From assembly GCA_963747235.1 (NCBI GenBank), contig CAVVEU010000024.1, positions 160,001 through 224,000 on the forward strand: DNA of 64,000 nucleotides. Reading direction: 5' to 3'. The DNA is from an uncultured Candidatus Rokubacteria bacterium. GTDB taxonomy: Bacteria > Methylomirabilota > Methylomirabilia > Rokubacteriales > CSP1-6. The position numbers and the translations under genes were made by a program. Under the pieces are notes generated by a model. The model was not told the origin of the DNA. It made no database searches and saw only the letters and a list, made by a program, of their open reading frames with translations. Below, in pieces: positions 8,548 through 24,680 of this stretch (the stretch's first letter is position 1; every line of letters begins with the position of its first letter).

Positions 8548-8910
8548 GTGGGTAAGGTGATGGTGGTCGATGACGCCGTGTCAGAGCTGAAACTGATCGA
8601 GGGCATTCTCAAGGCGGCCGGGCATCAGGTGGTGTCGTACGACCACGGTGAGCTCCTGGAAGATCGGGTCGTCGAGGAGCGGCCGGACCTCCTACTGCTG
8701 GACATCGTGATGCCCAAGCGCAACGGCTACGAGGTGCTGCGGGGGCTGCGGCGCGATCCCCGCACCAAGGACACCCCGGTGGTGTTCGTGAGCTCCAAGA
8801 ATCAGGAGAGCGATCGCCTGTGGGGGCAGCGCCAGGGCGCCGCGGACTATCTGGCCAAGCCGTTCACCGCGGACCAGCTTCTCGGCATGGTGCGCCAGTT
8901 CGTGAAATAG
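8548..8910 (+). CDS. Single-domain response regulator, PilH-like
   Basis: VVDD, LLDIVMP, LAKPF, and PilH-like ESDRLWGQRQGA. Confidence 0.88.
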   Translation: MGKVMVVDDAVSELKLIEGILKAAGHQVVSYDHGELLEDRVVEERPDLLLLDIVMPKRNGYEVLRGLRRDPRTKDTPVVFVSSKNQESDRLWGQRQGAADYLAKPFTADQLLGMVRQFVK

Positions 8911-8915
8911 CGCTG

Positions 8916-9431
8916 ATGACCCAGACTCCCGTGATCCCCGTCCTGCCCGCCGCGCCGGATGCCCCTCCGGCGCCGCGCGCCTGCCTGTTCGCGCTGGCCG
9001 GGGCGCGGCTCGCGGTGGACGTGCGGAGCGCCCGCGAGGTGGTGCTCTTCGACGAGATCACCGCAGTGCCCCGGGCCCCCCGGCACCTGGTGGGCGTGGC
9101 GAACCTCCGGGGCACCGTGATGCCGATCGTGGACGTCCGGGAGCTGCTGGGACTGGCAGAATCGCGTCCCGGGCGTACCTTCCGCACGCTGGTCGTGCGC
9201 GATGGCGCCGTGCAGGCGGCCTGGTCGTGGACACCGTGCTCGGGCTCGAGCCCTTCGAGACCGTGATGCCGGCCGACAGCCCGACCGCCGCGGGGATGTG
9301 GGGACCCCGCCCGTTCATGGCCGGCTGGATCCAGTGGGCCGGGGAGACCCTGCCGCTGCTCGACGTCCCGAAGATCCTCGCCGCGCTTCGCGCTTCGAAC
9401 TCCGACGATCGCGCAGGAGGTATCCGCATGA
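8916..9431 (+). CDS. CheW/PilI-like coupling protein; frameshifted near 9222, 3' end uncertain
   Basis: VPRAPRHLVGVANLRGTVMPIVDV, then VDTVLGL...LPLLDVPKIL in another frame; probable stop TGA 9429-9431. Confidence 0.82.
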
Positions 9432-10678
9432 ATCGGAGAGACTTCCTCGGCGGCGTCCTCTCGACGGGTCTCGCGAGCGCGCTCCTTCCGGGCGCCGCCG
9501 CGCGGGCCCAGGCCGGCGAGATCCGGATCGGCATGAGCGCCGCGTTCCGGGGCGCCGCGGCCGGCCTCGGCAGCGAGCTGTACCGGGGCGCCCATGCCTA
9601 CTACAGCGAGATCAACGCGCGCGGCGGCCTGTTCGGGCGGCAGCTCACGGTGGTCGCGCTCGACGATGGCTACAACCCGGACCCGTGCATCCGCAACACG
9701 ATCCAGCTCCTGGACCGCGAGAAGGTGTTCCTGCTCTCCAACTACGTGGGCACGCCGACCCTCACGCGCGCGCTGCCCGTCATCAAGCAGTACGCGGATC
9801 AGGCCGTGGTTCTGGTGGGCAACTTCACCGGCGCCCAGCCCCAGCGCGAGGCCCCATACGTCGATCAGGTCTTCAACATCCGGGCCTCCTACCGGCAGGA
9901 GATGGCGGCGCTGGTGGAGCGCTTCTGGCAGGCGGGGGCGCGGCGGTTCGGCGTCTACTACCAGATCGACGCCTACGGCCGCAGTGGCACCGACGGGGTG
10001 GCGCGGGCTCTCGCCGCGCGCAACGCCAAGATCGTGGCCGAGGCCACCTACGTGCGCAACGCCAAGTTCGAGGAGGACATGACCATCGCGGTCAATGCGC
10101 TCCGCGAGGGCGGCAGTGAGGTCGTGCTGTGCACCGGGGCCTACCAGGGCTGCGCCGCCTTCGTGCGCTCCGCGCGCGACGCGGGCTGGACCGCGCCGAT
10201 CTCCAATGTCTCGTTCGTGGGATCGGACGCCATGCTCGGATTGCTGGTCAAGCACGGCCGCGCGAAGAACCGCGACTACACGCGCGCCTTGATCAATTCC
10301 CAGGTGGTGCCGAGCTACGACGATACCGTCCTGCCGGGCGTGGTCGAGTACCGGGCCCTCATGGACAAGCACAACCCGCAGGTGCCCGAGGCGCTTCGCG
10401 ACGGCGCGTACACGCCGCAGAAGTACAGCTTCATCAGCCTCGAGGGCTACGTGAACGCGCGGGTGATCGTCGAGGCGCTGCGCCGGGCGGGGGCCAGCGC
10501 GGGGCGGTCGTCCTTCCGCCAGGCGCTGGAATCGCTCCGCGGCCTCGATCTCGGGATCGGCGCGCCGCTCACCTTCACGGCCGAGCGGCACCAGGGGCTG
10601 GACAGCGTCTACTTCACGCGGGTCGAGGGCGATCGCTGGGTGCCGGTCGCTGACTGGGCCGCTGCGGTCAAGGCATGA
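9428..10678 (+). CDS. Tat-exported periplasmic binding protein (LivK/Peripla_BP_6-like)
   Basis: AGGAGG RBS, MNRRDFL twin-Arg signal, DDGYNP, VGTPT, FNIRASYRQE, SLEGYVNA. Confidence 0.88.
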   Translation: MNRRDFLGGVLSTGLASALLPGAAARAQAGEIRIGMSAAFRGAAAGLGSELYRGAHAYYSEINARGGLFGRQLTVVALDDGYNPDPCIRNTIQLLDREKVFLLSNYVGTPTLTRALPVIKQYADQAVVLVGNFTGAQPQREAPYVDQVFNIRASYRQEMAALVERFWQAGARRFGVYYQIDAYGRSGTDGVARALAARNAKIVAEATYVRNAKFEEDMTIAVNALREGGSEVVLCTGAYQGCAAFVRSARDAGWTAPISNVSFVGSDAMLGLLVKHGRAKNRDYTRALINSQVVPSYDDTVLPGVVEYRALMDKHNPQVPEALRDGAYTPQKYSFISLEGYVNARVIVEALRRAGASAGRSSFRQALESLRGLDLGIGAPLTFTAERHQGLDSVYFTRVEGDRWVPVADWAAAVKA

Positions 10679-12544
10679 ACATGGGCATGGACAGTCTGAA
10701 GCGGGGCTGGAGGAAGCACGCGATGCGGAAGCGCGCGGAGGGTCCGGGATCGCTCGTCGAGACCACCGTCCCGGCCTCCCGGGCGCGGTTCGGCCTCCTC
10801 GGCAAGATCACGATCTTCCTCGTGCTGGTCCTGCTGCCGGTGGCGATCGTGAGCTGGGTCATCGCCTACCGGTCGCTGCAGGAGAACCTGAGCCGCGAGT
10901 TCACCGACAAGGGCAGCGCCATCGCCAACAGCCTGTCGAGCTCCGCGGCGGACCTCGTGGTCAATCGCGACGCGTCCACCGTGCAGGCCCAGGTCGACGA
11001 GTTCGCCAAGATCTCCGGCGTGGCCTACGTCATGGTCTACGATCCCCAGCGCGCCCTCATCGCCCACACCTTCGCGCCGGTGGTGCCCAAGGGCATCATC
11101 GAGAAGAACGTGGTGCCGGGGCAGGCGACCCGGCCGCAGGTCCAGGAGCTCACCTATCAGGATCCCCGCAGCGGGGGCGAGCGGGAGATCATCGACATCG
11201 GCGTGCCCATGCTGGGCGGCCGCCTCGGTACCGTGCGGGTGGGCATGGACAAGTCGATCATCATCACCGCGGCGGTCGGAGCCGGCAACTTCCTGCTCCT
11301 GGTGCTGGGCGGGATCGCGGCGGCCGCGGTGCTCGCGGGCGTGGTCTTCGCGCAGCGGATCACGCGGCCGGTCAACGCGCTCATGAGCGTGGCCGAGCGC
11401 GTGGGCCGGGGCGACCTCTCCCAGCTCGTGCCGGTCACCTCGCGCGACGAGATCGGCCAGATGGCGGTCACCTTCAACGAATCCATCGTGCGGCTGCGCT
11501 CGCTCGTCCAGACCGAGACCGACCGCGACGAGGAACGCCGCAAGCGCGAGGAGCTGCAGCAGAACATCATCAAGTTCCTCGACACGGTCGTGGAGATCGG
11601 CAAGGGCGACCTCACCCGACGCGGCGAGGTGAGCTGGGACGTGCTCGGCAACGTGGTGGACGCCATCAACCTGATGGTCGAGGAGATCGCCTCGATCGTC
11701 GGCGACGTGCGGCAGGCCGCCCTCCGCGTGGCCTCGGGCTCGCAGGACACCATCCGGATCACCGGCGAGCTCGCGGAGGCGGCGCAGGCCCAGACCCGCG
11801 ACGCGGTGAGCGTGACCCGCTCGGTGGCGGACGTGACGGTCTCGGTGCGCCAGGTCGCGGACAGCGCCGACCAGAGCGCCAAGGCGGCGCGCCAGGTGCT
11901 CCAGGCCGCGAGCAAGGGCGAGGGCGCGGTGCGCAACAGCCTCGCGAGCATGCAGCAGATCCGGGCCGAGGTGCAGACCATCTCCAAGAAGATCAAGTCC
12001 CTCGGCGACCGCTCGCTCGAGATCTCCAACATCGTGAACACCATCCAGGACATCGCGGCCCAGACGCACCTGCTCGCCCTGAACGCCTCCATCGAGGCGG
12101 CGGGCGCGGGCGAGGCGGGGCTGCGCTTCTCGGTCGTGGCGGACGAGGTCCGGAAGCTGGCCGAGCGGGCCACCCAGGCCACCCGGGACATCGGCACGCT
12201 CATCAAGGGCGTGCAGGTGGAGACCCAGGAGGCGGTGGTGGCGATGGAGGCCGGGACCCGCGAGGTCGAGTCCGGGTACGAGGTGAGCCTCAAGGCGGAG
12301 GAGGCCCTCCAGGAGATCGGGAAGATCTCGCAGACGTCCGCCGAGCTCGCCGCCGAGATCTCCCACGCGTCGCAGACGCAGGTCCGGGGCGCCGAGGCGG
12401 CCGCGGGCGCGGTGCAGGCGATCGCGGGCTCGGCGGTGAAGACCGAGCAGGGCGTGCAGCAGAGCCGGACAGAACGTCGAGCAGCTGGCCCGCCTGGCGG
12501 AAGAGCTGACCGCCAAGCTGTCCCGCTTCAAGCTGGCGAGCTGA
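10675..12544 (+). CDS. Methyl-accepting chemotaxis protein (PilJ-like): 2 TM, periplasmic sensor, 2 HAMP; late frameshift near 12470
   Basis: IAAQTHLLALNASIEAAGAGEAGLRFSVVADEVRKLAE; true end probably ...LSRFKLAS-TGA at 12544; start may be ATG 10723. Confidence 0.93.
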
Positions 12545-12548
12545 CGAC

Positions 12549-15502
12549 ATGGCCGATCGGCGCGAGCGCGAGCTGCTGCTGGGCATCTTCCTGATGGAGG
12601 CCTGGGATACCGCCGGGGCCATCGAGGAAGGGCTCGACCGGCTCACCTCCGCGGAGGCCCCGACCGAGGAGGCCCTCGCGACGCTCGTCGTCTTCGCGCA
12701 TCGCCTGAAGGGCTCGGCCGCGCTCCACGGCTTTCCCGGCGTCTCGGAGCTGGCCGGCGGGACCGAGCGGCTGCTCGAGCGCGCCCCCACCGCGTCGGCC
12801 GAGGAGCGGGCGCGCTCGGCCGTCTTCCTGGACGGCCTCGTCGGTCTCCTGAAGGAAGTCTTCGACGGCATCAGCGCGGTCGGGATGGAGGACTCGGCCC
12901 GCATCGGGGAGTTCAAGTCCCGCTATCCCATGTTCTTCTCCGCCGCGGTCGTCGCGCCCCGTCCGGTCGTCGAGCCGGCTGCCGACACATCGCCCGAGCC
13001 GTCCATGATCGCGCCGGCTCCGCTCCGGTCTCGCCGCTGATCGCCGATCTGCGGCGGTTCTTCGCCGAGGGCGGTGAGGTTCTGGAGTACTTCGTGCCCG
13101 AGGCCGCCGAGCATCTGGAGGCGATGACCACGGCCCTGCTCGCCATCGAGGGCGGCGCGCGCGACGAGGACACCCTCGCGACCGTCTTCCGGGCCGCGCA
13201 CACGCTCAAGGGCGCGGCGTACACGGTCGGCTGCGCGCCGCTCGGCGACGCCACCCACCAGATCGAGGATCTCCTCGACGCGGTGCGCGAGCACCGACTT
13301 CCCGTCACGCCGGCGGTGACCGAGGCGATCTTCGCGGGAACCGCGGCCATCAAGCGGGTGCTCCAGTCCGGGGCCGCGGTCTCCGACGAGGCCGCGCAGG
13401 CGCTGGAGCGCGCGACCCGCGACCTGTGCGTCCTGACGGCGTCGGAGAGCCTGCGCGAGCGCGCGGCCCCGCGGCCCGCGGTCGAGGTTCCCGAGCTGGT
13501 CGCGGCCGAGGCGCCGGAGCCTCGCGCTGCCGGCCTCGGTGGAGCTGCCGGCCTTCGTCCGGCCGGAGTTCCTGGCCCGGCTCGAGGCGCTCCCGCGGCC
13601 GGCCCCCCGCGCGGCGAGCGCGCCGACCGGTCCGAGCATCCGGGTGCCGGTGGAGCGGCTCGACACCCTGATGAACCTGGTGGGCGAGCTGATGATCGCG
13701 CGGAGCCGCCTCGACCGGCGTCTGGCCCAGCTCGACCAGGTGAGCGAGCTGCTCCTCGCCAGCCGCACGCGCCTGGGCCAGGTCGGCCGCGACTTCGAGT
13801 TTCGCCGGCAGGCGCCCACGATGCCTCGCGACGACCGCGCCGAGCGCGACGACGCGGGCGAGCTGCGCGACATCTCGGAGCTCTTCGCCGAGCTCGAGTT
13901 CGATCGCTACGACGACATCAGCATCCTGGCCCGCAGCGTGACCGAGATGTCGGCCGACGTGGCCGAGGTGCAGAGCCAGCACGCGATCCTGCTGCGCAAC
14001 ATCCGGGAGGATACCGTCCAGATCCAGCGCCTGACCGCGGCCCTCCGCAAGGAGATCACGCGCGCGCGCATGGTGCCCATCGGCCGGCTCTTCGCGCGGG
14101 TGGCCCAGCAGGTGCGGGAGGCGGCGCGGGCCACCGGGAAGGCGGTGACCCTCACGGTGCGCGGGGAGTCGGCGGAAGTGGACAACGGAATCATCGAGCA
14201 GATCGCCGACCCGCTGTTGCACCTGATCCAGAACGCGGTCGCTCACGGCATCGAGTCGGCCCCGGAGCGCGAGAGCCGCGGCAAGGCGGCCTCCGGCCAC
14301 GTGACCCTGTCCGCGTCCCAGGAGGGCAGCTTCATCCTGGTGGAGGTGGAGGACGACGGGCGCGGGATCGACACCGAGGTGTTGCGCCGGCACGCGGTGG
14401 AGCGCGGGTTCCTGCCCGCGGCCGAGGCCGCGACGCTGCCCGAGGGTGAGGTCCTGAACCTCATCTTCGTGCCGGGCTTCAGCACCGCCTCCGCGGTGAC
14501 CCAGACCGCCGGCCGCGGGGTCGGCCTCGACGTCGTGCGCACCAATGTGAGCCGGCTCAACGGCGAGATCCACGTCGAGACCGAGGCCGGCCGCATGACG
14601 CGCTTCGTGCTGAAGCTGCCCCTCACGATGGCGATCGCGGACGCGCTGATGGTGCGGTGCGGGTCGGAGACCGTGGCGTTCCCGCTCACCGCGGTGAGCG
14701 CGATGCGCTCGGTCGCGCCCCACGAGATCCAGACCGCGGGCGGGCGGGAGACCGTGCAGCTCGACGACCGGATGATCGACCTCGTCCGCCTCGATCGGGC
14801 CCTGGGCCTCGTCGCGGCTCCGCCGCCCTCGCGCCTGCCGGTGGTGGTAATGCGCGGCGGCGGCAAGCCGTTCGGCGTGGTGGTGGACGAGCTCCTGGGC
14901 AAGGAAGAGATCGTCATCAAGAACCTGGGCGCGCTCGTCGACGGGATGGGCCCGTTCTCGGGCGCCACGATCTCGGGCGAAGGTCGCGTGATCCTGCTCC
15001 TCGATCCGACCCTCCTCCGCGAGGCGGCGGCGCGAAAGCCGGCCGCCCCGGTGCGCGAGCCGGCAGGCGCGTCGCTCGACGACCTCGCCCCACCGTCATG
15101 CTGGTGGACGATTCGGTGAGCATCCGGAAGTTCGTGGGCCAGATGCTGGAAAAGGCCGGCTTCCAGGTCGTCACCGCGATCGATGGCCACGACGCGCTCG
15201 AGCAGCTCCTGGAGCGGACGGTGGACGTGGTCGTCACCGATCTCGAGATGCCGCGCGTGAACGGGTACGCCCTGATCGAGGACCTGAGGCGTCGGCCGGC
15301 GACCCGCGAGGTCCCGGTGATCGTGATGACGACCCGAGCGGGCGACAAGCACGCGAACCTGGCCCATCGCCTGGGCGTGCGCCACTACATCACGAAGCCG
15401 GTGGACGAGCAGAGCTTCGTACGGATCGTCGAGTCGGTCGCGGCGGGAGAGCGGGCGCTCGAAGTGGCCGGCGTCCCGCGCGCCGGGAGCCTGGTGGACT
15501 AG
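12549..15502 (+). CDS. CheA/ChpA-like hybrid kinase (Hpt-Hpt-dimerisation-HATPase-CheW-REC); frameshifts near 13020, 13520 and 15085
   Basis: AHRLKGSA and AHTLKGAA Hpt motifs; LMNLVGEL, HLIQNAVAHGIE, DDGRGID, GRGVGLDVV; C-terminal LVDDS...TDLEMP...ITKP. Confidence 0.92.
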
Positions 15503-15505
15503 GCG

Positions 15506-16399
15506 ATGGCCGACGCCAAGGTGCTCGTGGTGGACGCCAACCAGGACAGCCGGGTCGCGCTGGCCCATGCGCTCGCGGAGGCCGGCTACGAGGCGGCGGT
15601 CGCGACGAGCGGCTCGTTCGCGCTGACCATGCTCGAGTGGGAGCAGCCCGACCTCATCGTGAGCTACGCCAAGGTGCAGGACATGGACGGCTACGAGCTG
15701 TTCACGATGGTGCGGCGCGATCCCGCGACGAAGGACACGCCCTTCCTGCTCCTGGCCGGCCGCGATCGGCCCATCGCGCTGGCCGCCACCGAGGCCGGCG
15801 TGGACATGACGGTCACCGGGGACTTCACCCTGGCCACCGTGATGTCGCGCATCAAGGAGCTGCTCGGCGACGAGCCGCCCGCCGCCCCGGTGCGCCGCCC
15901 GGAGCCGCCCGCGGCCGCCAAGGGGCCCGCCAAGATGCCGGCGCGGCCGCCCGCCGCTCCCGCCGTCGCGGCGCCCGCCGCCAAGAGCGCGCTCGAGCCC
16001 GGGCGCAGCAGCTTCCAGGGCTCGCTCGGGGTGATGGACCTGACCGAGCTCACCCAGGTCATCTCGCTCGGGGTCAAGACCGGCGAGCTCCTGCTGTCGC
16101 TGTCGGGCGGCGAGGGGAGCATCCTCTTCGAGGCGGGCCGGGTCATCCACGCCGAGTTCGCGGGCAAGACCGGGGAGCCCGCCTTCGCGGCGATGGTGGG
16201 CGCCTCCCAGCGGGAAGGCGAGGCGCGCTTCTGCTTCAACCGCGCCGAGCGCGAGACGCTGGCGGGACGGCCGCGCACCATCTCGCGCAGCGTGGAGCAG
16301 CTCCTTCTGAGCGTGGCGCAGGCGATCGACGAGGGAACCCAGGGAGCCGACGGGCGCCGGGAGGCCGCCGCCGCCCGTGGACCGCGGCGGGACGGATAG
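15506..16399 (+). CDS. Atypical receiver domain + Pro-rich linker + DUF4388/PatA-N-like domain
   Basis: REC-like fold lacking canonical residues (VVDAN, DLIVSY, no KP); FQGSLGVMDLTELTQVISLGVKTGELLL...GSILFEAGRVIHAE. Confidence 0.8.
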   Translation: MADAKVLVVDANQDSRVALAHALAEAGYEAAVATSGSFALTMLEWEQPDLIVSYAKVQDMDGYELFTMVRRDPATKDTPFLLLAGRDRPIALAATEAGVDMTVTGDFTLATVMSRIKELLGDEPPAAPVRRPEPPAAAKGPAKMPARPPAAPAVAAPAAKSALEPGRSSFQGSLGVMDLTELTQVISLGVKTGELLLSLSGGEGSILFEAGRVIHAEFAGKTGEPAFAAMVGASQREGEARFCFNRAERETLAGRPRTISRSVEQLLLSVAQAIDEGTQGADGRREAAAARGPRRDG

Positions 16400-16402: not shown

Positions 16403-17284
16403 ATGCCCAAGGTGCTGGTCGTAGACGACAGTCTCAGCGTTCGGAAAGTCGTGCAGCGGGCGCTGGAGTCGAAGCGCATCGAGGTGCTGTCGGCGGCCTC
16501 GGGAAGCGAGGCGATGGAGCAGATCGCGCGCGAGGCGCCGGACCTCATCGTCTGCGACGTGATCATGCCGGACATGGACGGCTACCAGATCTGCGACTTC
16601 GTGAAGAAGCATCCGACCCTCGGGCACACGCCGGTGCTGCTGATCTCGGGCATCGTCAACAGCACCGTGCTCGAGCGCGCCGCCAAGGTTCGCTCGGATG
16701 ACGTGATGCGGAAGCCCTTCGCGGCCGACGAGCTCCTGCATCGCATCGAGAGCCTGCTGCCCGCCGCGGGGCGCCCCGCGCCGGCCGCTGCGCCCCCGCC
16801 GGTTGCCGGGGCTGCCCCGACCGCGTCGGCCGCGGCTCCGACCCCGGCGCCCGAGCGTCGTGCGCCCCAGCCCGAACGCCCGGCTCCCGTCGCGGAGCCG
16901 GTCGCGGTCGCCGCGCCGGCGCCTGCGCCGGGTCCCGATCTCAAGGCGTTGCTCGCCGGGGTGGCCGAGCTGGCCGGGGTCTCCCTGATCGCGCTGATCG
17001 ACCGCGAGGGGGCCCTGATGGAAGTCGCGGGCGGGCTCCTTCCCGAAGCCGAGCTCGCGGGGGCCCTCGCGGCTTGTCTCGTCGAGTCGACCGACGGGGT
17101 GGGCCGGGCCCTGACCCAGGGGCGTCTCCAGAGCTTGATCCTCGAATACGACGCGGGTGTCGTGCTGCTGAATGCCGTCGGTGCGGGCGCGATGCTCGCG
17201 GTCGTTCTTGGCGATCCGGCGGTGCTCGGCAAGGTGCGGTACCACGTGAAGAAAGCGCTCCCGGACCTGGTCCGGGCGGTGTGA
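16403..17284 (+). CDS. Receiver domain + Pro/Ala linker + roadblock/LC7 (MglB-like) domain
   Basis: Canonical REC (VVDDS, VCDVIMP, MRKPF); C-terminus GVSLIALIDREGALM...LQSLILEYDAGVVLL...LGKVRYHVKK. Confidence 0.85.
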   Translation: MPKVLVVDDSLSVRKVVQRALESKRIEVLSAASGSEAMEQIAREAPDLIVCDVIMPDMDGYQICDFVKKHPTLGHTPVLLISGIVNSTVLERAAKVRSDDVMRKPFAADELLHRIESLLPAAGRPAPAAAPPPVAGAAPTASAAAPTPAPERRAPQPERPAPVAEPVAVAAPAPAPGPDLKALLAGVAELAGVSLIALIDREGALMEVAGGLLPEAELAGALAACLVESTDGVGRALTQGRLQSLILEYDAGVVLLNAVGAGAMLAVVLGDPAVLGKVRYHVKKALPDLVRAV

Positions 17285-17295: not shown

Positions 17296-20233
17296 ATGAG
17301 AACGTCCTATCATTCCGTGTCCAGCGCCCAGCGACTCTCGTCGTGGCTGATGGCGGTGCTGGGGCTGGCCGCGTATGTCGGCCTCATCTACGTCCTGACC
17401 CTCGTGCCTCTTCAGTTCGAGGTGCCGCTGCCGAAGTGGGCCGTCGCGAGCATCCCTCCGGTGGCGTACGGCCTGCTGGTCTGGCTATGGGTTCGCCGTC
17501 CATCCGTCGTGCGCTGGCTCGTGGGCACCGCGGTCCTGAGCGGCCTCCACGTCTTGCTGAGCATGTCGCGGGAGCCGCTCAGTGCGCTGCTCGATCCGGC
17601 GCTCGCGGGGCGCGCCCTGCCCTGGATGCTGCCGCCGCCCTTGCCGGAGCTGATCGGCGTGATGCTGCTCCTGGTGCCGCTCCGTGATCTGCTGCACGCG
17701 CCCGTCCGCCTTCCCCGCGAGCGGAGCGCCGTTGCCGCGCGCCCGTCGGCGAGTCTTCGGGCTCGCGCCGCCACGCCCGCGCGCGTGCAGGCCGCGCCCC
17801 CGCTCGAGGGCATGGGATCCCTGAGCGACGCGCTGCTCTCGCGAAACGAGCCGGCTCCCGAGCCGGGCGTGATTCCCGCTCCGATGATGCCGATGGCGCC
17901 GCCCCCGCCCCGCGCCGGTACCGGACGAGGAGCCCCGTCGCCGCCGCGCCGCCGCCGCGAAGCGCCGGCGCGAAGCGCAGCCGGCCCGTGCGCCCGGCCG
18001 ATCGGAAGTGGTGCTGCGGATCGCGCTCGACCGCGTCATGGACCAGTTTCCCCCCGGCACCTTCCTCGCCCCGGAGGATGAGGTCGCGGCGAGCCTGAGC
18101 GACCCCGGCTTCCTGCGGATCTCGGGCGAGCTCGTGGTCACCCAGCTCTCGGAAGGCGTGGCGCGGGTCGCGTGGAACGATATCGCCGACCAGTTCCCGG
18201 CCCACCTGGTGGGATTGAGCAAGGCCGAGATCGCCGAGCACCTGGGAGACGGTCTACGGCTTCCCCTCGATGAGGTCATCAGCCAGTTCCCGCAGGAGCT
18301 GTTCGTCGCGGACACGCCGGAGGTCGAGATCCACGGGCTCCACCGGATCCCGGTCCCGTTCCATCCGATGGAGGAGTCTGCCGCGCCGAGCGAGACGGCC
18401 GCGGTGATCCCGCCGGAGCCGGAGATCACACCGGCACCGGAGATCAGGCCGATGCCGCTGCTGGACGCGCCGACCGCGGCGACGAAGGAGAGCAAACCGG
18501 TGCCGCCCGCGGTGCCGTCGTGGATGGCGCCGCAGCGCGTGGAGCATCTCGATCCGGTCGAGATCGAGGCACCCGCCGCGCCCCAGCCGATCGAGGTGCA
18601 GGAGCATGAGCCGGCCCCGGTCGACCGCTGGGCCGCCGCTCCCGAGAGCGACGAGCCGACGGTGCGCATCTCCTGGAGTCGCGTGGCAGCGGAGCTTCCC
18701 GTGGAGGCGTTCAACGTCCCGCTGGACCAGGTGGCCGAGCGGATGCGTCAGCCCGGCGCGCTGCTGATCCCGCAGTCGCTCGTGCTGCCTCAGCTCGCGG
18801 AGGGCCTGATCCGCGTGGGCTGGGACGTGATCGCGCCGCAGTTCCCCCGTGAGGCAATGGCCGTGTCGGACACGGAGATGGCGGAGCGCCTGCCGAACGG
18901 CCTTCGTCTCCCGCTGGACGAGATCGTCCGGCAGGTTCCACTGGATCTCTTCATGGCCGTCGGCCCGGCCGCCGACGTCCGCGGCCTCGAGTACTTTCCG
19001 GCGCCCTTCCAGCCCCTCGTGTCGGATCCGGCACCCGAGGCGCCGGTCGAAGCGCCCGTTCCCGAGCCCGAGATCGAGACCCCCGGGATCGAGACTGTAG
19101 TCGCCGAGGAGTCGCGGGAGCTCGTGGTCGAGCCTGCGCCCGCTCTCGTCCTGCCCACGGAACCCGAGCCCATCGTGGCCGACGATCCGGTGGTCGACCT
19201 CGTGCCGGATCCGATCGAGGAGCTTCCGGTCGTCCCGATGGTCGAGCCGGACCGTCCTCTCGATCTCGACACGCACGTCGTGCTCGACGAGCCTTCGCGG
19301 GTCGTGACCGCTCCGAGCCCGGCGATCGCGCCGGCCCGCGCGCCGCTGCCCCAGCCCGCATTCTCCTGGCCGAAGCCGTCGCCGGCCCGGGCCGCCGTCA
19401 CGACCTGGGCCGATCCGACGCCGGCCGCGCCGACCCCCGCCGCGCTCGTCCCGGGCCCCGCGGAGGCGGCGGAGGCCAGGCGCATCGTCGCGCTGCTGGC
19501 GCCGATCGCGTCCTTCGACGTGAGCGTCCAAGCGGTCGAGGGCGTCACCGTCTTTGCGATGGCCTCGCCCACGGTGGCGCATGAAACCGCGGTCGCGGTG
19601 GCGGGTCTCGCGCTGCCCCTGTTCACGGATCGCCGTCCGCCGTGGCCGGTGGATCAGATCACGTTGCGCGGGCCGGAGACGGCCGTCGTGCTGACCCCGC
19701 TCGGTGGTCCGGGCGATCGTGGCCCCGTCCTCGCGGCCGCGGCGCCCCGCGGCGGCGCCCTCGCGCTGCTCGAGATCCTCTGCCGGCGCGCCGCGGACGA
19801 CCGCGCCGGGCGCCCCGCGGGCCCGGGCCACGATGTGGTTCCGGCGGTCAGCTCGAGCCTGGCCCCGGCGGCGGTGCCGAGCCGGGCGGCGGCTCTCACG
19901 CGAGGGCTGACCGCGTTCGGCGACGTCACCGCGTCGGTGCTGAGAGACGCGGAAAGCGAAGCGGTTCTCTACTTCTTCCTGCCGGCGGGAGACGACGTGC
20001 CCGCGGTGGGAGCGTTCGCGCAGGACCTCCACGCCGTGATGCGCAAGGCGGCGGGGTCAGGCGCCGTGTTCCGGACCGCGATCCTGCGATCCGGCGACAC
20101 GCTCCTCGTCATCCAGCCCGAGGAAATCGGGCATGGGCGGTCGATCGTCATCGTCGCGGGTGGATCCGTCACCCGGCCCGGCTTGGCCTATCGCCAGGTC
20201 GAGCGCGCGGCGGCGACGCTGATGTCGGCCTGA
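17296..20233 (+). CDS. Large hypothetical membrane protein: ~4 N-terminal TM helices, duplicated ~119-aa domain, Pro/Glu linkers, two degenerate roadblock-like domains; frameshift near 17910
   Basis: ORFs 17074..18081 and 18008..20233 appear to be one gene; the internal repeat and C-terminal pattern are visible in translation. Confidence 0.65.
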
Positions 20234-20242
20234 GGCGACTCG

Positions 20243-20860
20243 ATGTCGATCATCAACTACGCGCAAAAAGAGATCAGCTTCAAGATCGTCTACTACGGCA
20301 CCGGCGTGGCCGGGAAGACCGCCAACCTCCAGTACATCTACCGCGGGCTCCCGGACGTCAACCGCGGCAACATGGTGTCGCTCGCGACGGGAGACGATCG
20401 GACCCTCTTCTTCGACTTCCTGCCGGTCTCCGCGGTGACGGTGCGGAACTTCGTGGCCAAGTTCCAGCTCTACACGGTGCCGGGCCAGATCTACTACAAC
20501 ATGACGCGCAAGCTCGTGCTGCGGGGCGTCGACGGCATCGTCTTCGTCGCGGACTCGCAGTGGGATCGCCTGCCCGAGAACGTGGAGAGCTTCAGAAACC
20601 TCGAAGAGAATCTCAAGGAGTACGGGTACAATCTTGACGAGATCCCGTACGTGATCCAATACAACAAGCGGGATCTGCCCAACGTGGCTCCGGTGGAGTA
20701 CCTCGAATACATGCTGAACCGGAAAAGTCGGCGGGTCCCGTACTTCGAATCGGTCGCCGTCGAGGGCAAGGGCGTGTTCGACACGCTCAACACTGTCTCT
20801 CGCATGGTCCTCGTCGCCGGGTTCGGACAAGAACAGGGGGCGCTCAATGAGTCTAAATGA
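20243..20860 (+). CDS. mglA: MglA-family small Ras-like GTPase
   Basis: KIVYYGTGVAGKT, DRTLFFDFLP, LYTVPGQ, GVDGIVFVADSQ, QYNKRDLP. Confidence 0.95.
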   Translation: MSIINYAQKEISFKIVYYGTGVAGKTANLQYIYRGLPDVNRGNMVSLATGDDRTLFFDFLPVSAVTVRNFVAKFQLYTVPGQIYYNMTRKLVLRGVDGIVFVADSQWDRLPENVESFRNLEENLKEYGYNLDEIPYVIQYNKRDLPNVAPVEYLEYMLNRKSRRVPYFESVAVEGKGVFDTLNTVSRMVLVAGFGQEQGALNESK

Positions 20861-21335
20861 CAACCTGGCCATCCACGAGGAGGACGCGCAGCGGATCAAC
20901 GGCGTCCTCCTGCACTTCCTGGGCGAGTCGGGTGCGATGGAATCGCTCCTGATCGACCGGAGCGGACAGCTCCTGGCGCGCGGCGGCGCCTCGCGGTCGC
21001 TCGACACCGTGTCGCTCTCCGCGCTCGCCGCGGGCGCGTTCAGCTCGACCGCCGCGATGGCGCGGCTGCTCGGCGAGACCGAGTTCACCATGCTGTTCCA
21101 TCAAGGCGTGAAGGAGAGCATCCACGTGGCCGCGGTGGACGAGCACGCGATCCTGCTCGCCATCTTCGACAGCCGGACCACGGTGGGCATGGTGCGTCTC
21201 TTCGCCAAGGAGGCGGGCACCGCGATCGGGGCCATCCTGGCCGAGACCCGGACGCGGCCTCAGCGCACCGGCGTGCTGTCCACGCCGCTGGGCAAGGACG
21301 AGGTGCAGTCCTCGCTGCGGGAGCGTCCGGTCTAG
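20847..21335 (+). CDS. mglB: MglB roadblock protein (MglA GAP)
   Basis: LIDRSGQLLA, DTVSLSALAAGAF, LGETEFTMLFHQG, FDSRTTVGMVRL. Confidence 0.92.
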   Translation: MSLNDNLAIHEEDAQRINGVLLHFLGESGAMESLLIDRSGQLLARGGASRSLDTVSLSALAAGAFSSTAAMARLLGETEFTMLFHQGVKESIHVAAVDEHAILLAIFDSRTTVGMVRLFAKEAGTAIGAILAETRTRPQRTGVLSTPLGKDEVQSSLRERPV

Positions 21336-21354
21336 CTGACGGACACCGACTACC

Positions 21355-23433
21355 ATGGCGCAGACTGACAACAAGACCTCGCTGTCCTCGGAAGAGAAGC
21401 GGTCCCTGGCCGAGTCGGCCCGGCTCTGCGAGATGATCGTGGAGGCCAACCCCTCGGACACCGGCGCGCTCGAGACCCTGAAGGAGATCTACACCAAGCT
21501 AGGTGATCGGGAGAACCTGGCCCGGGTCGTCGCGCGCCTCGCCGGTACGGTGGGGGGGCGGCCGTCCGCGAGCGTGGCCCCGGCCCCGGAGCCCATGACC
21601 GCGGGGACGACGGGTCGCGCGCCGTCGACCGAGGAGATGGAGGCGCTCGCCGCGTCCATCGAGGTCGCGCCGGCCCCGTTGCCCGGCAAGCGGGGCGGCG
21701 CCTCGCCGATCGAGCGGCGCCAGGGCAGCCTGTCGCGCCTCGGGGACCGGCTGGTGGCCGAGAAGCTCATCAGCCCGGACCAGCTCCAGCGCGCGCTCGC
21801 CGAGCAGAAGGGGAGCGCCGACAAGCTCGGGACGATCCTGGTGCGGCTGCAGTTCATCACCGAAGACAGCCTCGTCTCGTTCCTGTCGAAGCAGTACGCG
21901 ATGCCCGCGATCACGGTGGCGCAGGTGGATCCGGATCCGGACGTGCTCAAGCTCGTGCCCGAGCAGATCGCCAAGAAGCACAGCGTGCTCCCGATCAAGC
22001 GGATCGGGAACGTCCTCACCCTGGCGATGGCGGATCCCACCAACGTCTTCGCGCTCGACGACGTCGGCTTCATGACCGGCCTGCAGATCCAGCCGGTGGT
22101 CGCCTCCGAGGCGGCCATCCGGAAGGCCTTCGAGCGGCTCTACGAGACCGGCGCCAGCGTCAACGACATGATGAGCGAGCTGGAGGAGGCCGACACCGAC
22201 GTCGAGGTCGTGGAGGACGGCGAGGCCGCCTTCTCCAAGGCCGACGTTTTCGACCTCAAGGAGTCGGCCGACGAGGCTCCGGTCGTCCGGCTCATCAACA
22301 TGATCCTGACCGACGCCATCCGGCGGGGCGCCTCCGACATCCATCTGGAGCCCTACGAGAAGGTCTTCCGGGTCCGGTTCCGTATCGACGGCGTGCTGCA
22401 CGAGATCATGACGCCGCCCAAGCGCCTCGAGGCCGCCCTGACCTCGCGCGTGAAGATCATGGCCACGATGGACATCGCGGAGCGCCGACTTCCCCAGGAC
22501 GGCCGCATCAAGCTCCGCTACCACCAGCGCGAGATCGACTTCCGCGTCTCGACGCTGCCGACGATCTTCGGCGAGAAGACCGTCATGCGTATCCTGGACA
22601 AGGAAGCGCTCCAGCTCGACCTGGGCGCCCTCGGCTTCGACCCGTGGAGCCTCGAGCAGTTCAGCAAGGCGATCCACAGCCCGTACGGCATGATCCTGAT
22701 CACCGGGCCGACCGGCTCCGGCAAGACCACCACGCTGTACTCGGCCATCCACACCATCAACTCGCCGGACATCAACATCATGACCGCCGAGGATCCGGTC
22801 GAGTACAACCTGAAGGGCGTCAACCAGGTGCAGGTCAACGACGAGATCGGGCGCACCTTCGCGGCCTGTCTGCGAAGCTTCCTGCGGCAGGACCCGGACG
22901 TGATCCTGGTCGGCGAGACCCGAGACCTCGAGACGGCCCAGATCGGCATCCGCGCCGCCCTGACCGGCCACCTCGTGCTCTCCACGCTGCACACCAACGA
23001 CTGCCCGTCGACGCCCGCCCGGCTCCTCGACATGGGCATCCCGCCCTTCCTCGTCTCGTCCTCGCTCCAGCTCATCCTGGCCCAGCGGCTCGGACGCCGG
23101 ATCTGCAAGGACTGCAAGGAGCCCTACGAGGCGAACGAGGAGAGCCTGGTTCCCTACGGGCACGTGTCCCAGGGGCTCGGCGCCGTGAACTTCTACAAGG
23201 GCAAGGGCTGCCAGACGTGCAACTTCACCGGCATGAAGGGACGGGTCGCCATCTACGAGGTGATGCCCATCACCACCGAGCTCCGCGATCTCATGCTGCG
23301 CAACGCGACCACCGCGGAGATCCGCGATACCGCCTGCTCGCAGGGCATGAAGACGCTGCGGCAGAACGCGCTGCAGAAGGTGGTGGACGGCGTGACGACG
23401 GTGGAGGAAGTGCTGCGGGTGACGATGGGCTAG
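21355..23433 (+). CDS. pilB: Type IV pilus assembly ATPase PilB/GspE family with N-terminal TPR-like and MshEN segments
   Basis: Walker A GPTGSGKTT, EDPVEY, LRQDPDVILVGE, STLHTN, CKDC...CQTC; RLGDRLVAEKLISPDQLQRALAEQ. Confidence 0.9.
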   Translation: MAQTDNKTSLSSEEKRSLAESARLCEMIVEANPSDTGALETLKEIYTKLGDRENLARVVARLAGTVGGRPSASVAPAPEPMTAGTTGRAPSTEEMEALAASIEVAPAPLPGKRGGASPIERRQGSLSRLGDRLVAEKLISPDQLQRALAEQKGSADKLGTILVRLQFITEDSLVSFLSKQYAMPAITVAQVDPDPDVLKLVPEQIAKKHSVLPIKRIGNVLTLAMADPTNVFALDDVGFMTGLQIQPVVASEAAIRKAFERLYETGASVNDMMSELEEADTDVEVVEDGEAAFSKADVFDLKESADEAPVVRLINMILTDAIRRGASDIHLEPYEKVFRVRFRIDGVLHEIMTPPKRLEAALTSRVKIMATMDIAERRLPQDGRIKLRYHQREIDFRVSTLPTIFGEKTVMRILDKEALQLDLGALGFDPWSLEQFSKAIHSPYGMILITGPTGSGKTTTLYSAIHTINSPDINIMTAEDPVEYNLKGVNQVQVNDEIGRTFAACLRSFLRQDPDVILVGETRDLETAQIGIRAALTGHLVLSTLHTNDCPSTPARLLDMGIPPFLVSSSLQLILAQRLGRRICKDCKEPYEANEESLVPYGHVSQGLGAVNFYKGKGCQTCNFTGMKGRVAIYEVMPITTELRDLMLRNATTAEIRDTACSQGMKTLRQNALQKVVDGVTTVEEVLRVTMG

Positions 23434-23458
23434 GGAACCGCCCCCGCTCGAGGCGGGG

Positions 23459-23893
23459 TCAGACGGGAGAAACCCGCCAGGTGCCGCGCAGCCGATCCAC
23501 GGCGCGGCCGAGCGCGGTGCGAACCCCCTCGTTGTTCACGTTGCGATCCGCGACGAGCGTCACGTAGCCGACCGGGCTGCCCCCCACGAAGACGGTCCCG
23601 TCGTCCGCCGAGAAGAGCGCGGTGCGGAAGGCGCCCCGTTCCAGCCGGCTCGCTCCCAGCTCCAGCTCACGCCCGAGGGTGGCCGCGAGCGCGGCGAGCG
23701 CCTCCACCGGGAAGCGGGGCGGCAGCTCCGAGGTGATGACGAGGCCGTCCGGCGTCACGATGAGCCCCCCGCGCACGCCATCGAGACGGGTCAGCTCGGA
23801 GAGGGTCTCGCGGAAGGCCTGCGCCCGCGACGGGCGCGGCGCGGGCGGGCCGCCCGGAGGCGTCGAATCGGCGGTGGTCTGCGGGTCGGCCAT
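23459..23893 (-). CDS. Stand-alone roadblock/LC7 protein
   Basis: LDGVRGGLIVTPDGLVITSEL...EALAALAA...NVNNEGVRTAL. Confidence 0.88.
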   Translation of the reverse strand: MADPQTTADSTPPGGPPAPRPSRAQAFRETLSELTRLDGVRGGLIVTPDGLVITSELPPRFPVEALAALAATLGRELELGASRLERGAFRTALFSADDGTVFVGGSPVGYVTLVADRNVNNEGVRTALGRAVDRLRGTWRVSPV

Positions 23894-23897
23894 CGGC

Positions 23898-24680
23898 TCA
23901 GGCCTTGATGTTCAGATCCGTCCACAGACGGCCGACCTGCACCAGCCCCGCTCCCACCTCGACCTCGCGCGCGAGCGCGACGCCCAGGATCACGCCGCCG
24001 TCGCTGCGAAGGAAGGTCGTCTCCGCGGCGCCCTCGATCACGCCCCGTCGCATCGCGCCGAGCCCGGCGCGGGCGAGCGTGGCGGAGGCGATGCGGTAGA
24101 CCTGCGTCATGTGCAGCCTGAGGTGCTTCTGGCGCTCCTCGCTCCCCTGGGCGAACACGAGCGTGCCGTCGGCCCGCGTCAGCACGAGGTCGTGAGCGCC
24201 CGGAGGCAGCCGCAGCCGCTCGGTGGAGATCGTCCCGATGGCGGTCGAGGCTCCCGGCGCGGGGGCGGTCCAGGTGGCCACCATCTCCTGCAGCGCCTTC
24301 GCTTCCGGGAAGTCCGGGAAGTACTGGATCGCCCGGTCGAGGAATGGCCGGCACCCCTCGATGTCGCCCTCTTCCAGCGCGATGCGCGCCAGGCCGAACA
24401 GGGCGCGCGGGTGGTAGGGATCGAGCCCGAGCACGCGCCGGAACGATGCCTTGGCCGCGGGCATCTCGCGAAACACGACGTGCAGGTAGGCGTCCAGCAG
24501 GTGCCCGACCGCGATGTTGGGCGAGACGCGCAACCCCTCGGTGATCAGCTCGGCGGCGTCCTCGTAGCGCCCTTCGTGGCGGTACTGGTCGGCCAGGCGG
24601 AAGAGAGAGGAGGCCGAGCGTGGCTTGACGAGCCCGGTGATGCCGCTCCAGGTGCGCTCGAGGAACGTCGCTAGGCCCAC
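23898..24680 (-). CDS. TPR repeats + C-terminal roadblock-like domain
   Basis: LADQYRHEGRYEDA...SPN, VLGLDPYHPRALFGLA (TPR); DLVLTRADGTLV...LGAMRRGVIEG...VEVGAGL. Confidence 0.75.
   Translation of the reverse strand: MGLATFLERTWSGITGLVKPRSASSLFRLADQYRHEGRYEDAAELITEGLRVSPNIAVGHLLDAYLHVVFREMPAAKASFRRVLGLDPYHPRALFGLARIALEEGDIEGCRPFLDRAIQYFPDFPEAKALQEMVATWTAPAPGASTAIGTISTERLRLPPGAHDLVLTRADGTLVFAQGSEERQKHLRLHMTQVYRIASATLARAGLGAMRRGVIEGAAETTFLRSDGGVILGVALAREVEVGAGLVQVGRLWTDLNIKA

Follow-up and report, generated by a model that had tools for sequence, protein, structure and literature searches.

The locus lies in a window of 64,000 nucleotides (the whole stretch of DNA that was analysed) from a Candidatus Methylomirabilota/Rokubacteria MAG of an uncultured soil organism, which is 88% complete and distributed over 42 contigs. 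Positions 8548-24680 contain 13 genes, 11 on the plus strand followed by two on the minus strand, whose domain content was established by Pfam, AF2, Foldseek and VIA-align:

8548..8910, plus strand: single-domain response regulator, CheY/PilH-like REC (Pfam Response_reg, 85.7 bits)
8916..9431, plus strand: cheW (Pfam CheW on the N-terminal half; read in three frames)
9428..10678, plus strand: periplasmic solute-binding protein (PBP), Leu/Ile/Val-binding type (Pfam Peripla_BP_6, 154.8 bits)
10675..12544, plus strand: membrane chemoreceptor, MCP (Pfam MCPsignal, 118.5 bits; HAMP, 56.9 bits)
12549..15502, plus strand: cheA, Hpt-Hpt-H-kinase_dim-HATPase_c-CheW-REC (Pfam on four frame pieces)
15506..16399, plus strand: pseudo-receiver followed by PATAN (DUF4388) (Pfam Response_reg, 47.7 bits; DUF4388, 47.4 bits)
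16403..17284, plus strand: REC-Robl, phosphorylatable receiver plus Robl_LC7 (Pfam Response_reg, 88 bits; Robl_LC7, 32.9 bits)
17296..20233, plus strand: large membrane protein (no Pfam match; internal repeat, AF2, VIA-align)
20243..20860, plus strand: mglA, MglA-like GTPase (Pfam Arf/Ras)
20847..21335, plus strand: mglB, Roadblock/LC7 protein (Pfam Robl_LC7, 51.5 bits)
21355..23433, plus strand: pilB, type IVa pilus extension ATPase (TIGR02538, 749.8 bits, cut-off 675.65; Pfam T2SSE, MshEN)
23459..23893, minus strand: stand-alone Roadblock/LC7 protein, convergent on pilB (Pfam Robl_LC7, 31.9 bits)
23898..24680, minus strand: TPR protein with eight helices and then a C-terminal Roadblock fold (Pfam TPR families; AF2)

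Intergenic gaps of 3-19 nt alternate with overlaps throughout the array (ATGA overlaps and a 14-nt overlap between mglA and mglB). An earlier note on this DNA had described a run of genes with short spacers or overlaps, on which a TPR-Roadblock and a Roadblock gene converge; all 13 genes lie where it had placed them, its domain calls were borne out and the convergent pair (23459-24680) is on the minus strand, facing pilB. It had not seen, however, that the reading frames of four genes (cheW, cheA, the large gene and that of the MCP) are broken in the window.

The small REC, found at 27 of the 31 family loci, has an acidic pocket, phospho-Asp, Ser and Lys that are all readable in its translation. 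The stop codon of cheW (9429-9431) overlaps the ATG of the PBP gene; compared with three relatives, cheW in the window lacks one nucleotide near 9220 and has an extra one near 9398, and in the relatives' loci L017-L020 it is one ORF of about 175 aa. The solute-binding protein carries a twin-arginine signal (RRDFL motif) and is likely to be the ligand-binding partner of the MCP receptor; its gene is present at 26/31 family loci (missing in L014, L019 and L056). The receptor contains hydrophobic segments at aa 36-54 and aa 193-211 (hydropathy) and a periplasmic domain with a weak match to sCache_3_2 (26.2 bits, under the family cut-off), and its frame is broken by a 1-nt insertion near 12470, the true stop being at 12542-12544. 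The cheA product, the sole H-kinase_dim match and hence the only CheA of the genome, changes frame in the window at about 13017-13028, 13519 and 15066-15084 (GC3 frame plot and comparison with relatives) and is a single ORF in L013-L016 (984-1000 aa). By its domain architecture and the order of its genes, the pathway would be of the type-IV-pilus style.

The protein encoded after CheA had been called a pseudo-receiver, in agreement with the replacement of its phospho-acceptor Asp by Ser, Thr or Cys in 26 of 26 orthologues. In REC-Robl, residues D8, D9, D52, S82 and K104 are invariant (20/20 sequences), a Pro/Ala-rich linker of variable length separates the two domains, and the C-terminal domain aligns with an MglB profile (hhalign Prob 89.5, E 2e-6). 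The large protein is composed of a hydrophobic N-terminus, Pro-rich linkers, an internal repeat (E 5e-34) of two copies of a domain of about 100 aa without Pfam match, and a C-terminal tandem of two Roadblock-like domains. These last were recognised in the AF2 model with VIA-align against Roadblock/MglB/MglC-family chains (residues 653-773, Z 6.7; residues 515-637, Z 4.8), the Z range of the pair, 4.4-6.7, being "middling" by the tool's own grading, and Foldseek with the whole model returned nothing at E <= 0.001. Its gene is frame-broken near 17880-17911 in the window and is one ORF (about 990-1090 aa) in relatives.

The catalytic residues of MglA are intact (invariant columns in 18/18 sequences), and the protein is 97-100% identical within the genus. 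The best NCBIfam match of the mglB product is MglB, at 80.4 bits, under the model cut-off of 200. PilB passes the type IVa PilB equivalog cut-off (TIGR02538) and contains, at aa 128-180, an MshE-type c-di-GMP-binding motif (NF053729, 69.6 bits, cut-off 38) that is typical of surface-commitment control, preceded by an N-terminal extension (aa 1-127) without any Pfam family match. The AF2 model of the TPR protein (pLDDT 83.7) includes a b-b-a-b-b-b-a unit at residues 164-255, and its top Foldseek match is the Roadblock chain 7f8m_A (E 6.7e-6, TMt 0.71), with 3kye_C and MglB 6izw_C also matched; this gene and that of the stand-alone Roadblock protein are always linked, yet their position and strand vary between genera. 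The earlier count of about six Roadblock domains is thereby reproduced, with three found by Pfam, one in the TPR protein (AF2/Foldseek) and two in the large protein (AF2/VIA-align). A type IVa pilus cluster (pilT-pilC-pilM-secretin) that has no PilB of its own lies on the same contig, 55-70 kb from the operon. PilT-like ATPases are present in the genome, so retraction, and hence twitching, is possible, and neither FlhA nor CheB nor CheR was found in the 88% complete MAG.

At least 13 genera of one family share the gene order REC-CheW-PBP-MCP-CheA-pseudoREC/PATAN-REC/Roadblock-TM/tandem-Roadblock-MglA-MglB, which is also found at 8/8 loci of the genus; its conservation within this family is far above chance level. 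Among the 31 family loci, the large protein is encoded in 31, MglB in 30, REC-PATAN in 29, CheA and REC-Robl in 28 each and PilB in 21, the latter being absent from the fetched stretch in nine. By hand comparison of match tables, a CheA orthologue is present in 72 of the 77 family genomes bearing the operon-type MglA, and a further 17 family genomes, many of them fragmented, have a CheA orthologue and no MglA match. At least two family members have lost mglA (loci L166 and L167): on unbroken contigs, mglA is gone and mglB kept in G112, and both are gone in G137. G201 (L049, L168) encodes MglA, MglB, PilB and the repeat-domain protein, and the roughly 20 kb of contig upstream of its mglA are free of Che genes. 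In a sister family, seven loci carry the Che/REC-Robl/tandem-Roadblock core without MglA, MglB or PilB (MglA is found in 0 of its 21 genomes), as does one locus of another family, and this core therefore has some MglA-independent output. The term "hard-wired", used in the earlier note, is too strong in view of the sister-family core. Only in the MglA-bearing family is PATAN joined to the pseudo-receiver and the repeat domain inserted into the TM/tandem-Roadblock protein; the MglA-less operon of the sister family lacks both of these domain-level fusions. The circuit is modular, and most likely two modules have merged down to the level of domain fusions.

The MglA of this family groups with a Verrucomicrobiota type, away from the other, canonical MglA of the phylum (SH-aLRT 99). 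The closest MglA proteins outside the phylum (58-66% identity) are encoded in clusters of Verrucomicrobiota, Zixibacteria and Ignavibacteria, of which no description was found in the literature, and in which mglA precedes mglB and PilB adjoins, as here, with a Roadblock gene or a repeat-domain protein just upstream of mglA. PilB is present at 16 of 75 non-Methylomirabilota MglA loci, and a CheA, CheW or REC-Roadblock gene within 10 kb of MglA at none of them.

Parts of this locus resemble known systems. In the Pil-Chp pathway of Pseudomonas aeruginosa and the cyanobacterial Tax/Pix systems, the genes run REC, CheW, MCP and then a multi-Hpt CheA that carries a receiver at its C-terminus (ChpA is such a multi-Hpt protein), and Pil-Chp also includes homologues of CheR and CheB and signals through cAMP. 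That order matches the one found here and the output is likewise aimed at the pilus extension motor, but neither Pil-Chp nor Tax/Pix makes use of MglA/MglB or of Roadblock proteins. In the PatA-type regulators of cyanobacteria PATAN comes before REC, and the receiver is functional in those that are chemosensory, whereas here REC precedes PATAN and 26/26 orthologues have a dead receiver. A PATAN regulator of cyanobacteria that binds the N-terminal domain of PilB1 and PilC, as described in the available part of 10.1101/2021.06.11.447907, provides a likeness to the PATAN protein of this locus. Actinobacterial conservons (CvnA-D) use a membrane sensor kinase instead of CheA with MCP and CheW, and contain neither a receiver domain nor a pilus ATPase; in the accessible sections of PMC4316618 the intrinsic Arg finger is missing from the conservon-type MglA group, and Pfam detected no CvnC-like protein at this locus.

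The Frz-MglA system of Myxococcus xanthus shares with this locus, according to the portions available of PMC10329633, PMC4316618 and PMC4546325, a CheA-CheY-type kinase upstream of the MglA/MglB switch, several Roadblock proteins (MglB and MglC there), a response regulator whose linker is rich in Pro (RomR there) and pseudo-receiver proteins (FrzS and AglZ) that act with MglA. Frz acts on a roadblock complex made up of RomR, MglC and MglB (PMC10329633). A TPR protein is also common to both, SgmX working there with MglA on pili (PMC7519303, in the part available). The Myxococcus genes are dispersed, with mglA not close to its partner genes (PMC4316618, same portion), whereas a single operon is found here, with the receiver fused directly to Roadblock, PATAN fused to the pseudo-receiver, a membrane-bound receptor with a periplasmic binding protein, no CheB/CheR found, mglA preceding mglB and an MglA clade different from the canonical one. 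In the literature searches this architecture was not found in any paper or characterised system, PMC4316618 and PMC3441718 included as far as their available text extends, in line with the earlier note. The locus joins parts of known kinds (Frz-MglA, Pil-Chp and PATAN-PilB) in a single operon.

In the mechanism proposed here, the Tat-exported solute-binding protein would load its ligand and dock on the membrane MCP, which, with CheW, would control the Hpt-Hpt-CheA-REC kinase. As neither CheB nor CheR was found, the role of phosphate sink or adaptation element could fall to the small REC and to the receiver carried by CheA, and the phosphorylatable REC-Roadblock protein would be the output of CheA. 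Roadblock domains are known MglA partners and Roadblock is the fold of MglB and MglC, and therefore phosphorylation of the receiver would change the pairing of REC-Robl with MglB, the membrane tandem-Roadblock protein or the TPR-Roadblock/Roadblock pair. This altered pairing would decide how GAP and GEF activities on MglA are balanced locally, and MglA-GTP, together with the pseudo-receiver-PATAN protein, may recruit or activate PilB at one cell site, determining where and when pili extend (directional twitching or polarity switching). From sequence evidence, we give a probability of about 0.55 to the locus being a real operon in which a Pil-type chemosensory pathway has merged with the MglA/MglB switch and PilB and controls pilus placement. 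The combined-logic circuit of the earlier note is retained for the identity of its components and their conserved order, whereas the signal flow from CheA through MglA to PilB is what we infer.

An unlikely reading is that two independent modules stand side by side with no signal between them, Che/Roadblock on one side and, on the other, an MglA-MglB-PilB pilus-polarity module (including PATAN, the repeat domain and the TPR-Robl/Robl pair) that landed downstream. The sister-family core without MglA, the core retained without mglA in G112 and G137, the Che-less cluster of G201, the CheA-free clusters of Verrucomicrobiota, Zixibacteria and Ignavibacteria (PilB at 16/75, the CheA core at 0/75) and the grouping of the family MglA with the Verrucomicrobiota type all speak for this reading. 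However, the merging at the domain level (pseudo-receiver and PATAN in one protein, repeat domain in the TM/tandem-Roadblock protein), the tight spacing along the entire array, the order retained over at least 13 genera and the CheA orthologue in 72/77 MglA-bearing genomes argue against it, and Roadblock domains are established MglA partners in the available part of PMC10329633.

It appears quite improbable that the merged circuit is wired as proposed but serves, instead of motility, some other polar or pilus-dependent process, for example adhesion or the entry into biofilms, the uptake of DNA, contact of a predation-like kind or polarity in the cell cycle. The c-di-GMP-binding MshE-type motif of PilB, the operon copies without PilB and the uncultured state of the organism are consistent with this idea, but PilT-like ATPases make retraction and twitching possible, and where MglA is known to work with type IV pili, in the available sections of PMC4316618, it does so in motility and invasion. 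Very improbable, finally, is a decay of the locus in the source organism, in which the indels would be genuine and four genes (cheW, cheA, the large gene and that of the MCP) would be pseudogenes. The roughly seven frame changes of 1-nt type over 9 kb, confined within the locus to the che part and the large gene, would fit such a decay, but beyond each break the true frame resumes with high GC3, conserved residues and no stops, and relatives with 78-94% nucleotide identity to the window have intact ORFs. The breaks are likely assembly indels, because they are absent from three relatives and a transaldolase gene, with a housekeeping function, is split likewise elsewhere in the window (46615-47284); in addition, the source is a 42-contig MAG, and other MAGs show scattered breaks at different positions (L013, L017).

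The window has a G+C content of about 70%, so that open frames alone are little informative; frames were picked by third-position G+C (GC3) and the genes were named with Pfam and NCBIfam models. In this Candidatus Methylomirabilota/Rokubacteria genome the array is composed of the following genes:

Gene 1, starting at 8548, plus strand: single-domain receiver (REC)
Gene 2, plus strand: CheW
Gene 3, plus strand: Peripla_BP_6 solute-binding protein (PBP) with a twin-arginine signal
Gene 4, plus strand: membrane MCP with two hydrophobic segments, HAMP, a signalling domain and a weak sCache_3_2 match
Gene 5, plus strand: CheA with two Hpt, a dimerisation domain, HATPase_c, CheW and a C-terminal receiver
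Gene 6, 15506-16399, plus strand: receiver and DUF4388/PATAN protein (PATAN protein)
Gene 7, 16403-17284, plus strand: receiver and Robl_LC7 protein (REC-Robl)
Gene 8, 17296-20233, plus strand: large protein with zero Pfam matches
Gene 9, plus strand: MglA-like GTPase
Gene 10, plus strand: MglB-like Roadblock protein
Gene 11, plus strand: PilB
Genes 12-13, minus strand, convergent on pilB: Roadblock protein (Robl) and TPR protein (TPR-Robl)

Gaps within the array are of 3-19 nt or are replaced by overlaps (the cheW and PBP genes share an ATGA, the PBP and MCP genes overlap by 4 nt and mglA and mglB by 14 nt), and the coordinates that an earlier note, made from the sequence alone, had assigned to it proved exact. 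A scan of 7800-25200 was uninformative, with no promoter-like sites and one terminator-like site (3.6 expected by chance).

In the window, the reading frames of cheA, cheW, the large gene and the MCP gene shift within conserved sequence. When aligned with three relatives, this copy shows one nucleotide lost near 9220, one gained near each of 9398, 12470 and 13519, and net frame shifts around 13017-13028, 15066-15084 and 17880-17911. Such breaks could come from real pseudogenisation or from errors of assembly. The versions of the relatives are intact (a single ORF of 984-1000 aa for CheA, and products of about 175 aa for cheW and about 990-1090 aa for the large gene) and, past each break, the true frame keeps high GC3 and the conserved residues. 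A transaldolase/fructose-6-phosphate aldolase gene (46615-47284, plus strand) is split alike, with positions 1-121 and 121-273 of Pfam TAL_FSA in two frames, and such damage to a housekeeping gene indicates indel errors across the assembly. Because of this, and of the nature of the source genome (a MAG of 42 contigs, 88% complete), the breaks are very probably assembly indels, and decay of these genes is judged unlikely.

The same array was found in all eight loci of the genus that were fetched, by nucleotide alignments and ORF maps. Thirteen query proteins were also searched by tblastn in the surroundings of MglA genes from the phylum (46 loci), and the 31 loci from the window's own family (at least 13 genera, MglA identity 68-100%) were tallied. 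The large protein is present in all 31, MglB in 30, the MCP and the REC-PATAN protein in 29 each, CheA and REC-Robl in 28 each, REC and CheW in 27 each, the PBP in 26, Robl and TPR-Robl in 25 each and PilB in 21, several of the absences in this tally being contig ends. The nine family loci with no PilB in the fetched stretch belong to four genera. The TPR-Robl/Robl pair is never apart, and it lies downstream and convergent, upstream and divergent or downstream and co-directional, depending on the genus. Among 158 family genomes, 77 contain the operon-type MglA and 103 a CheA match; when the two tallies were compared by hand, the CheA orthologue was identified in 72 of the 77 MglA-bearing genomes, and 17 genomes had the orthologue and no MglA match. 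These tallies include two unpublished genomes (G229 and G064), and the MglA tally a third one (G074), on which only the counts rest.

CheA proteins with more than one Hpt and a C-terminal receiver mark the type-IV-pilus (Tfp) class. The window CheA has this arrangement (two Hpt, H-kinase_dim, HATPase_c, CheW and Response_reg by Pfam), matches only generic CheA models in NCBIfam, with scores under their cut-offs, and contains the single H-kinase_dim match of the source genome. The che genes are also linked to type IV pili, pilB lying within the array in 21 of the 31 family loci. Architecture and gene order thus suggest a Tfp-type CheA. FlhA was not found in the source genome (88% complete), and neither CheB nor a CheR over the cut-off was found there. 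The locus was also considered as a Frz (ACF-class) system. The Frz system of Myxococcus uses a cytoplasmic FrzCD-type receptor with FrzF and FrzG as its CheR/CheB partners (partly after PMC3441718). Here the receptor, with two hydrophobic segments and HAMP, is membrane-bound and neither CheB nor a CheR over the cut-off was found in the 88% complete genome, and this assignment was rejected.

The GTPase has the residues expected of MglA: all 18 aligned sequences share G19, G21, G24, K25, T26, R53, Q82 and N141-D144 (NKRD), which provide the P-loop, the intrinsic arginine, the catalytic glutamine and NKxD, and mglB adjoins (the roles of these residues, including the intrinsic arginine finger, are taken from PMC4316618). 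With the canonical MglA found in other families of the phylum, this GTPase shares 51-57% identity. The mglB product matches Robl_LC7 (51.5 bits, Pfam cut-off 23) but scores 80.4 bits with the NCBIfam MglB equivalog NF052242 (cut-off 200); its position and fold family are those of an MglB-like protein, but it is no equivalog of NF052242. PilB exceeds the cut-off of TIGR02538, the type IVa pilus PilB equivalog (749.8 against 675.65 bits). Its residues 128-180 (21736-21894) carry an MshE-type c-di-GMP-binding motif (NF053729, 69.6 bits, cut-off 38), through which c-di-GMP may act as a further input to the motor; for the 127 residues N-terminal to it, Pfam gave nothing at E <= 1. The same contig has, outside the window at contig positions 238358-254099 (about 55-70 kb downstream of pilB), a type IVa pilus cluster that encodes a secretin, PilM, PilC and a PilT-like ATPase. 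Since this cluster has no PilB-type ATPase, and the only PilB-type match on the contig is that of the operon, the latter is likely to be the extension motor of this pilus machine.

The PATAN protein was identified by PF14332 (47.4 bits, cut-off 25). PatA-type regulators have an N-terminal PATAN domain followed by a phosphorylatable receiver, whereas here the receiver comes first and all 26 orthologues carry S, T or C at the position of its acceptor Asp, which makes it a pseudo-receiver. In REC-Robl, D8, D9, D52, S82 and K104 are invariant in 20 of 20 sequences, and the receiver is joined to the Roadblock domain by a Pro/Ala-rich linker of very variable length. RomR is marked by a receiver, a Pro-rich linker and a conserved RomR-C tail; the C-terminus of REC-Robl is a Roadblock domain. 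This C-terminal domain matches the MglB profile in hhalign (Prob 89.5, E 2e-6) and, in a search of five genomes from other phyla, matched only their MglB genes. A predicted complex of MglA with two copies of it scored 0.01 (mark 0.32), which is neutral as evidence.

Among the small family profiles compared by hhalign, that of REC-Robl was the sole match to the MglB profile; those of TPR-Robl, Robl and the large protein were unmatched, and structure models were therefore needed for TPR-Robl and the large protein. The TPR protein model (pLDDT 83.7) contains eight TPR helices and a b-b-a-b-b-b-a domain; its best Foldseek match is an archaeal Roadblock protein (7f8m_A, E 6.7e-6), with MglB (6izw_C) also listed. 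The large protein was modelled from nt 17912 on (773 residues; pLDDT about 90 in the folded parts, with long disordered Pro-rich linkers). It carries two copies of a repeat domain of about 100 aa (18002-18301 and 18647-18961; internal repeat E 5e-34) with no Pfam match at E <= 1, which is present in the MglA-bearing family and was undetected in the sister-family homologue. These are followed by two tandem a-b-b-a-b-b-b-a domains (residues 516-631 and 650-772), an order that fits Roadblock. In VIA-align both domains have Roadblock-family chains in the top rows, but the scores are middling, for the first domain Z 4.8 with 3cpt and 4.4 with MglC (7cy1), and for the second Z 6.7 with MP1-p14 and Asgard Roadblock and 6.1 with MglB (3t1r). 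The hhalign comparison with the Robl profile gave E 0.017, and Foldseek of the whole 773-residue model against the PDB gave nothing at E <= 0.001. Pfam detects three Roadblock domains in the source genome, all within the operon locus; together with the modelled domain of the TPR protein and the two candidates in the large protein at middling Z, the predicted number is six, which agrees with the approximately six of the earlier note.

Part of this system also exists without its GTPase. In the sister family (same order), CheA orthologues with 50-64% identity were found in 12 of 21 genomes, and MglA of any type in none of the 21 at E <= 1e-20. Seven loci of this family (L158-L164) and one from another family (L165) have the order REC-CheW-(PBP)-MCP-CheA-pseudo-receiver-REC-Robl-TM/tandem-Roadblock and then end, without MglA, MglB or PilB; in L161 the tandem-Roadblock gene is directly followed by a DAO/GCV_T enzyme gene. 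The sister-family pseudo-receiver lacks PATAN and also the Asp, and the similarity of the large protein is confined to its Roadblock end. L158 has two more genes at about 7992-9800, between cheA and the pseudo-receiver gene, one for another receiver and one for another CheW-like protein. Exceptions occur within the window's family too: in genome G112 (L166) mglA is missing between the large gene and mglB, which is kept; in G137 (L167) both mglA and mglB are missing; and in G201 (L049, L168) genes for the repeat-domain protein, MglA, MglB and PilB are present, and the approximately 20 kb of contig upstream of mglA contain no che genes. In other families of this phylum, MglA is of the canonical type, mglB precedes mglA and che neighbours are absent (14 loci). 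Because MglA-less variants exist, the che core must also have an MglA-independent partner. The earlier note had proposed a hard-wired circuit from ligand to kinase, GTPase and pilus motor; its parts do lie in one array, but the MglA-less variants are the main evidence against a simple linear circuit.

Outside the phylum, MglA was compared in an alignment scan with one genome per GTDB species. Among the best 80 of at least 597 stretches, five are from Methylomirabilota, duplicates of loci already covered, all with che genes. Within 10 kb, the other 75 loci among these best 80 of at least 597 show neither a CheA core nor CheW (receiver-domain matches and one weak MCP were the only hits); PilB is present in 16 of them, the order mglA-mglB in 33 and mglB-mglA in 27. 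Loci with no che genes include those of Verrucomicrobiota (L083, L084, L087-L089, L092, L097), where PilB is followed by a protein weakly similar to the large-protein repeat region, MglA and MglB, and those of Zixibacteria, Ignavibacteria and unclassified bacteria (L090, L095, L098, L104, L108, L135, L152), with the order Robl-MglA-MglB-PilB and then a second ATPase match. In a quick IQ-TREE tree of 121 MglA rows (midpoint rooting for drawing only), the family MglA forms a clade (SH-aLRT 99) beside Verrucomicrobiota proteins, split (SH-aLRT 99) from a canonical clade that includes the other Methylomirabilota families. The simplest reading, tentative as to the direction of events, would be that a Che/REC-Roadblock module at the level of the order came first, and that a cross-phylum MglA-MglB-PilB module with PATAN, repeat-domain and Roadblock genes merged with it in the family ancestor, the merger extending to two domain fusions.

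Apart from the points taken from papers, the mechanism that we infer is as follows. As the gene for the PBP is flanked by those for CheW and the MCP, a ligand would presumably be sensed through the binding protein, which would act on the MCP, and the extra receivers would probably serve as phosphate sinks, since CheB and CheR were not found. REC-Robl is the only phosphorylatable protein of the array with an output domain, and this domain shares the MglB/MglC fold; its phosphorylation through MCP, CheW and CheA could be the output step. Phosphorylated REC-Robl would then act on a Roadblock platform (MglB, the tandem-Roadblock protein and TPR-Robl/Robl) and so on the GTP state of MglA, which, with the pseudoREC-PATAN protein, would set the placement or activity of PilB. 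This chain is proposed because of the gene content and of precedents in Myxococcus and Synechocystis. In Myxococcus, RomR (receiver and Pro-rich linker), MglC and MglB are described as forming a Roadblock complex, which determines GAP activity and is the target of Frz (PMC10329633); REC-Robl resembles RomR and MglC in a single chain. Pseudo-receiver proteins of Myxococcus, FrzS and AglZ, are partners of MglA (PMC4316618 and PMC4546325). In Synechocystis, PATAN domains are reported to bind the N-terminal domain of PilB1 and PilC (10.1101/2021.06.11.447907), and MglA/MglB genes are known to adjoin PATAN genes (same source and PMC4316618).

As a more speculative reading, to which we give a probability of roughly 0.3, we tentatively propose that receiver-Roadblock fusions are an undescribed class of chemosensory output, in which phosphorylation by CheA would directly remodel a Roadblock platform formed by REC-Robl and the tandem-Roadblock protein anchored in the membrane. 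Where MglA is present, the platform would be a phospho-switched GAP/GEF co-regulator of MglA aiming PilB, and in the MglA-less sister family it would act on another partner. If this is true, the locus would be a one-operon counterpart of the Frz-to-MglA link, with RomR plus MglC in one protein, and Roadblock domains would be general chemosensory effectors, beyond GTPase regulation. Full-text literature searches found no description of a receiver-Roadblock chemosensory output and, as the earlier note had supposed, no paper with a che-mglA-mglB-pilB operon, which the supplementary table of MglA neighbourhoods of PMC4316618 could nevertheless hold. According to that source, MglA groups 1, 4 and 5 have variable neighbourhoods with occasional PATAN genes, and mglA lies away from its partner genes in Myxococcus and Bdellovibrio.

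The Myxococcus route from the chemosensory kinase to the MglA switch is still being worked out, its parts being many and scattered, and the Rokubacteria locus, with the whole chain in one operon, provides a short list of candidate contacts for work with purified proteins despite the uncultured host: CheA with REC-Robl, the Roadblock proteins with MglA and MglB, and PATAN and MglA with PilB. Naturally occurring variants can serve as comparisons: cores from the family that lacks MglA, operons lacking mglA, and MglA-MglB-PilB clusters lacking Che. Rokubacteria are widespread in soil and known only from genomes; the locus suggests that they probably rely on type IV pili under sensory control, for movement or attachment, and lack flagella. 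Part of the stretch is contained in 21 sequencing runs, from metagenomes of soil, sediment and permafrost, with a share that never exceeds 0.43 and is 0.08-0.19 in RNA runs; no claim on habitat or expression is drawn from these. Just downstream of the array, two large TPR-containing proteins are encoded at 24896-26794 and 31292-33151 (both plus strand), the latter also matching PMT_2 (dolichyl-phosphate-mannose-type glycosyltransferase).
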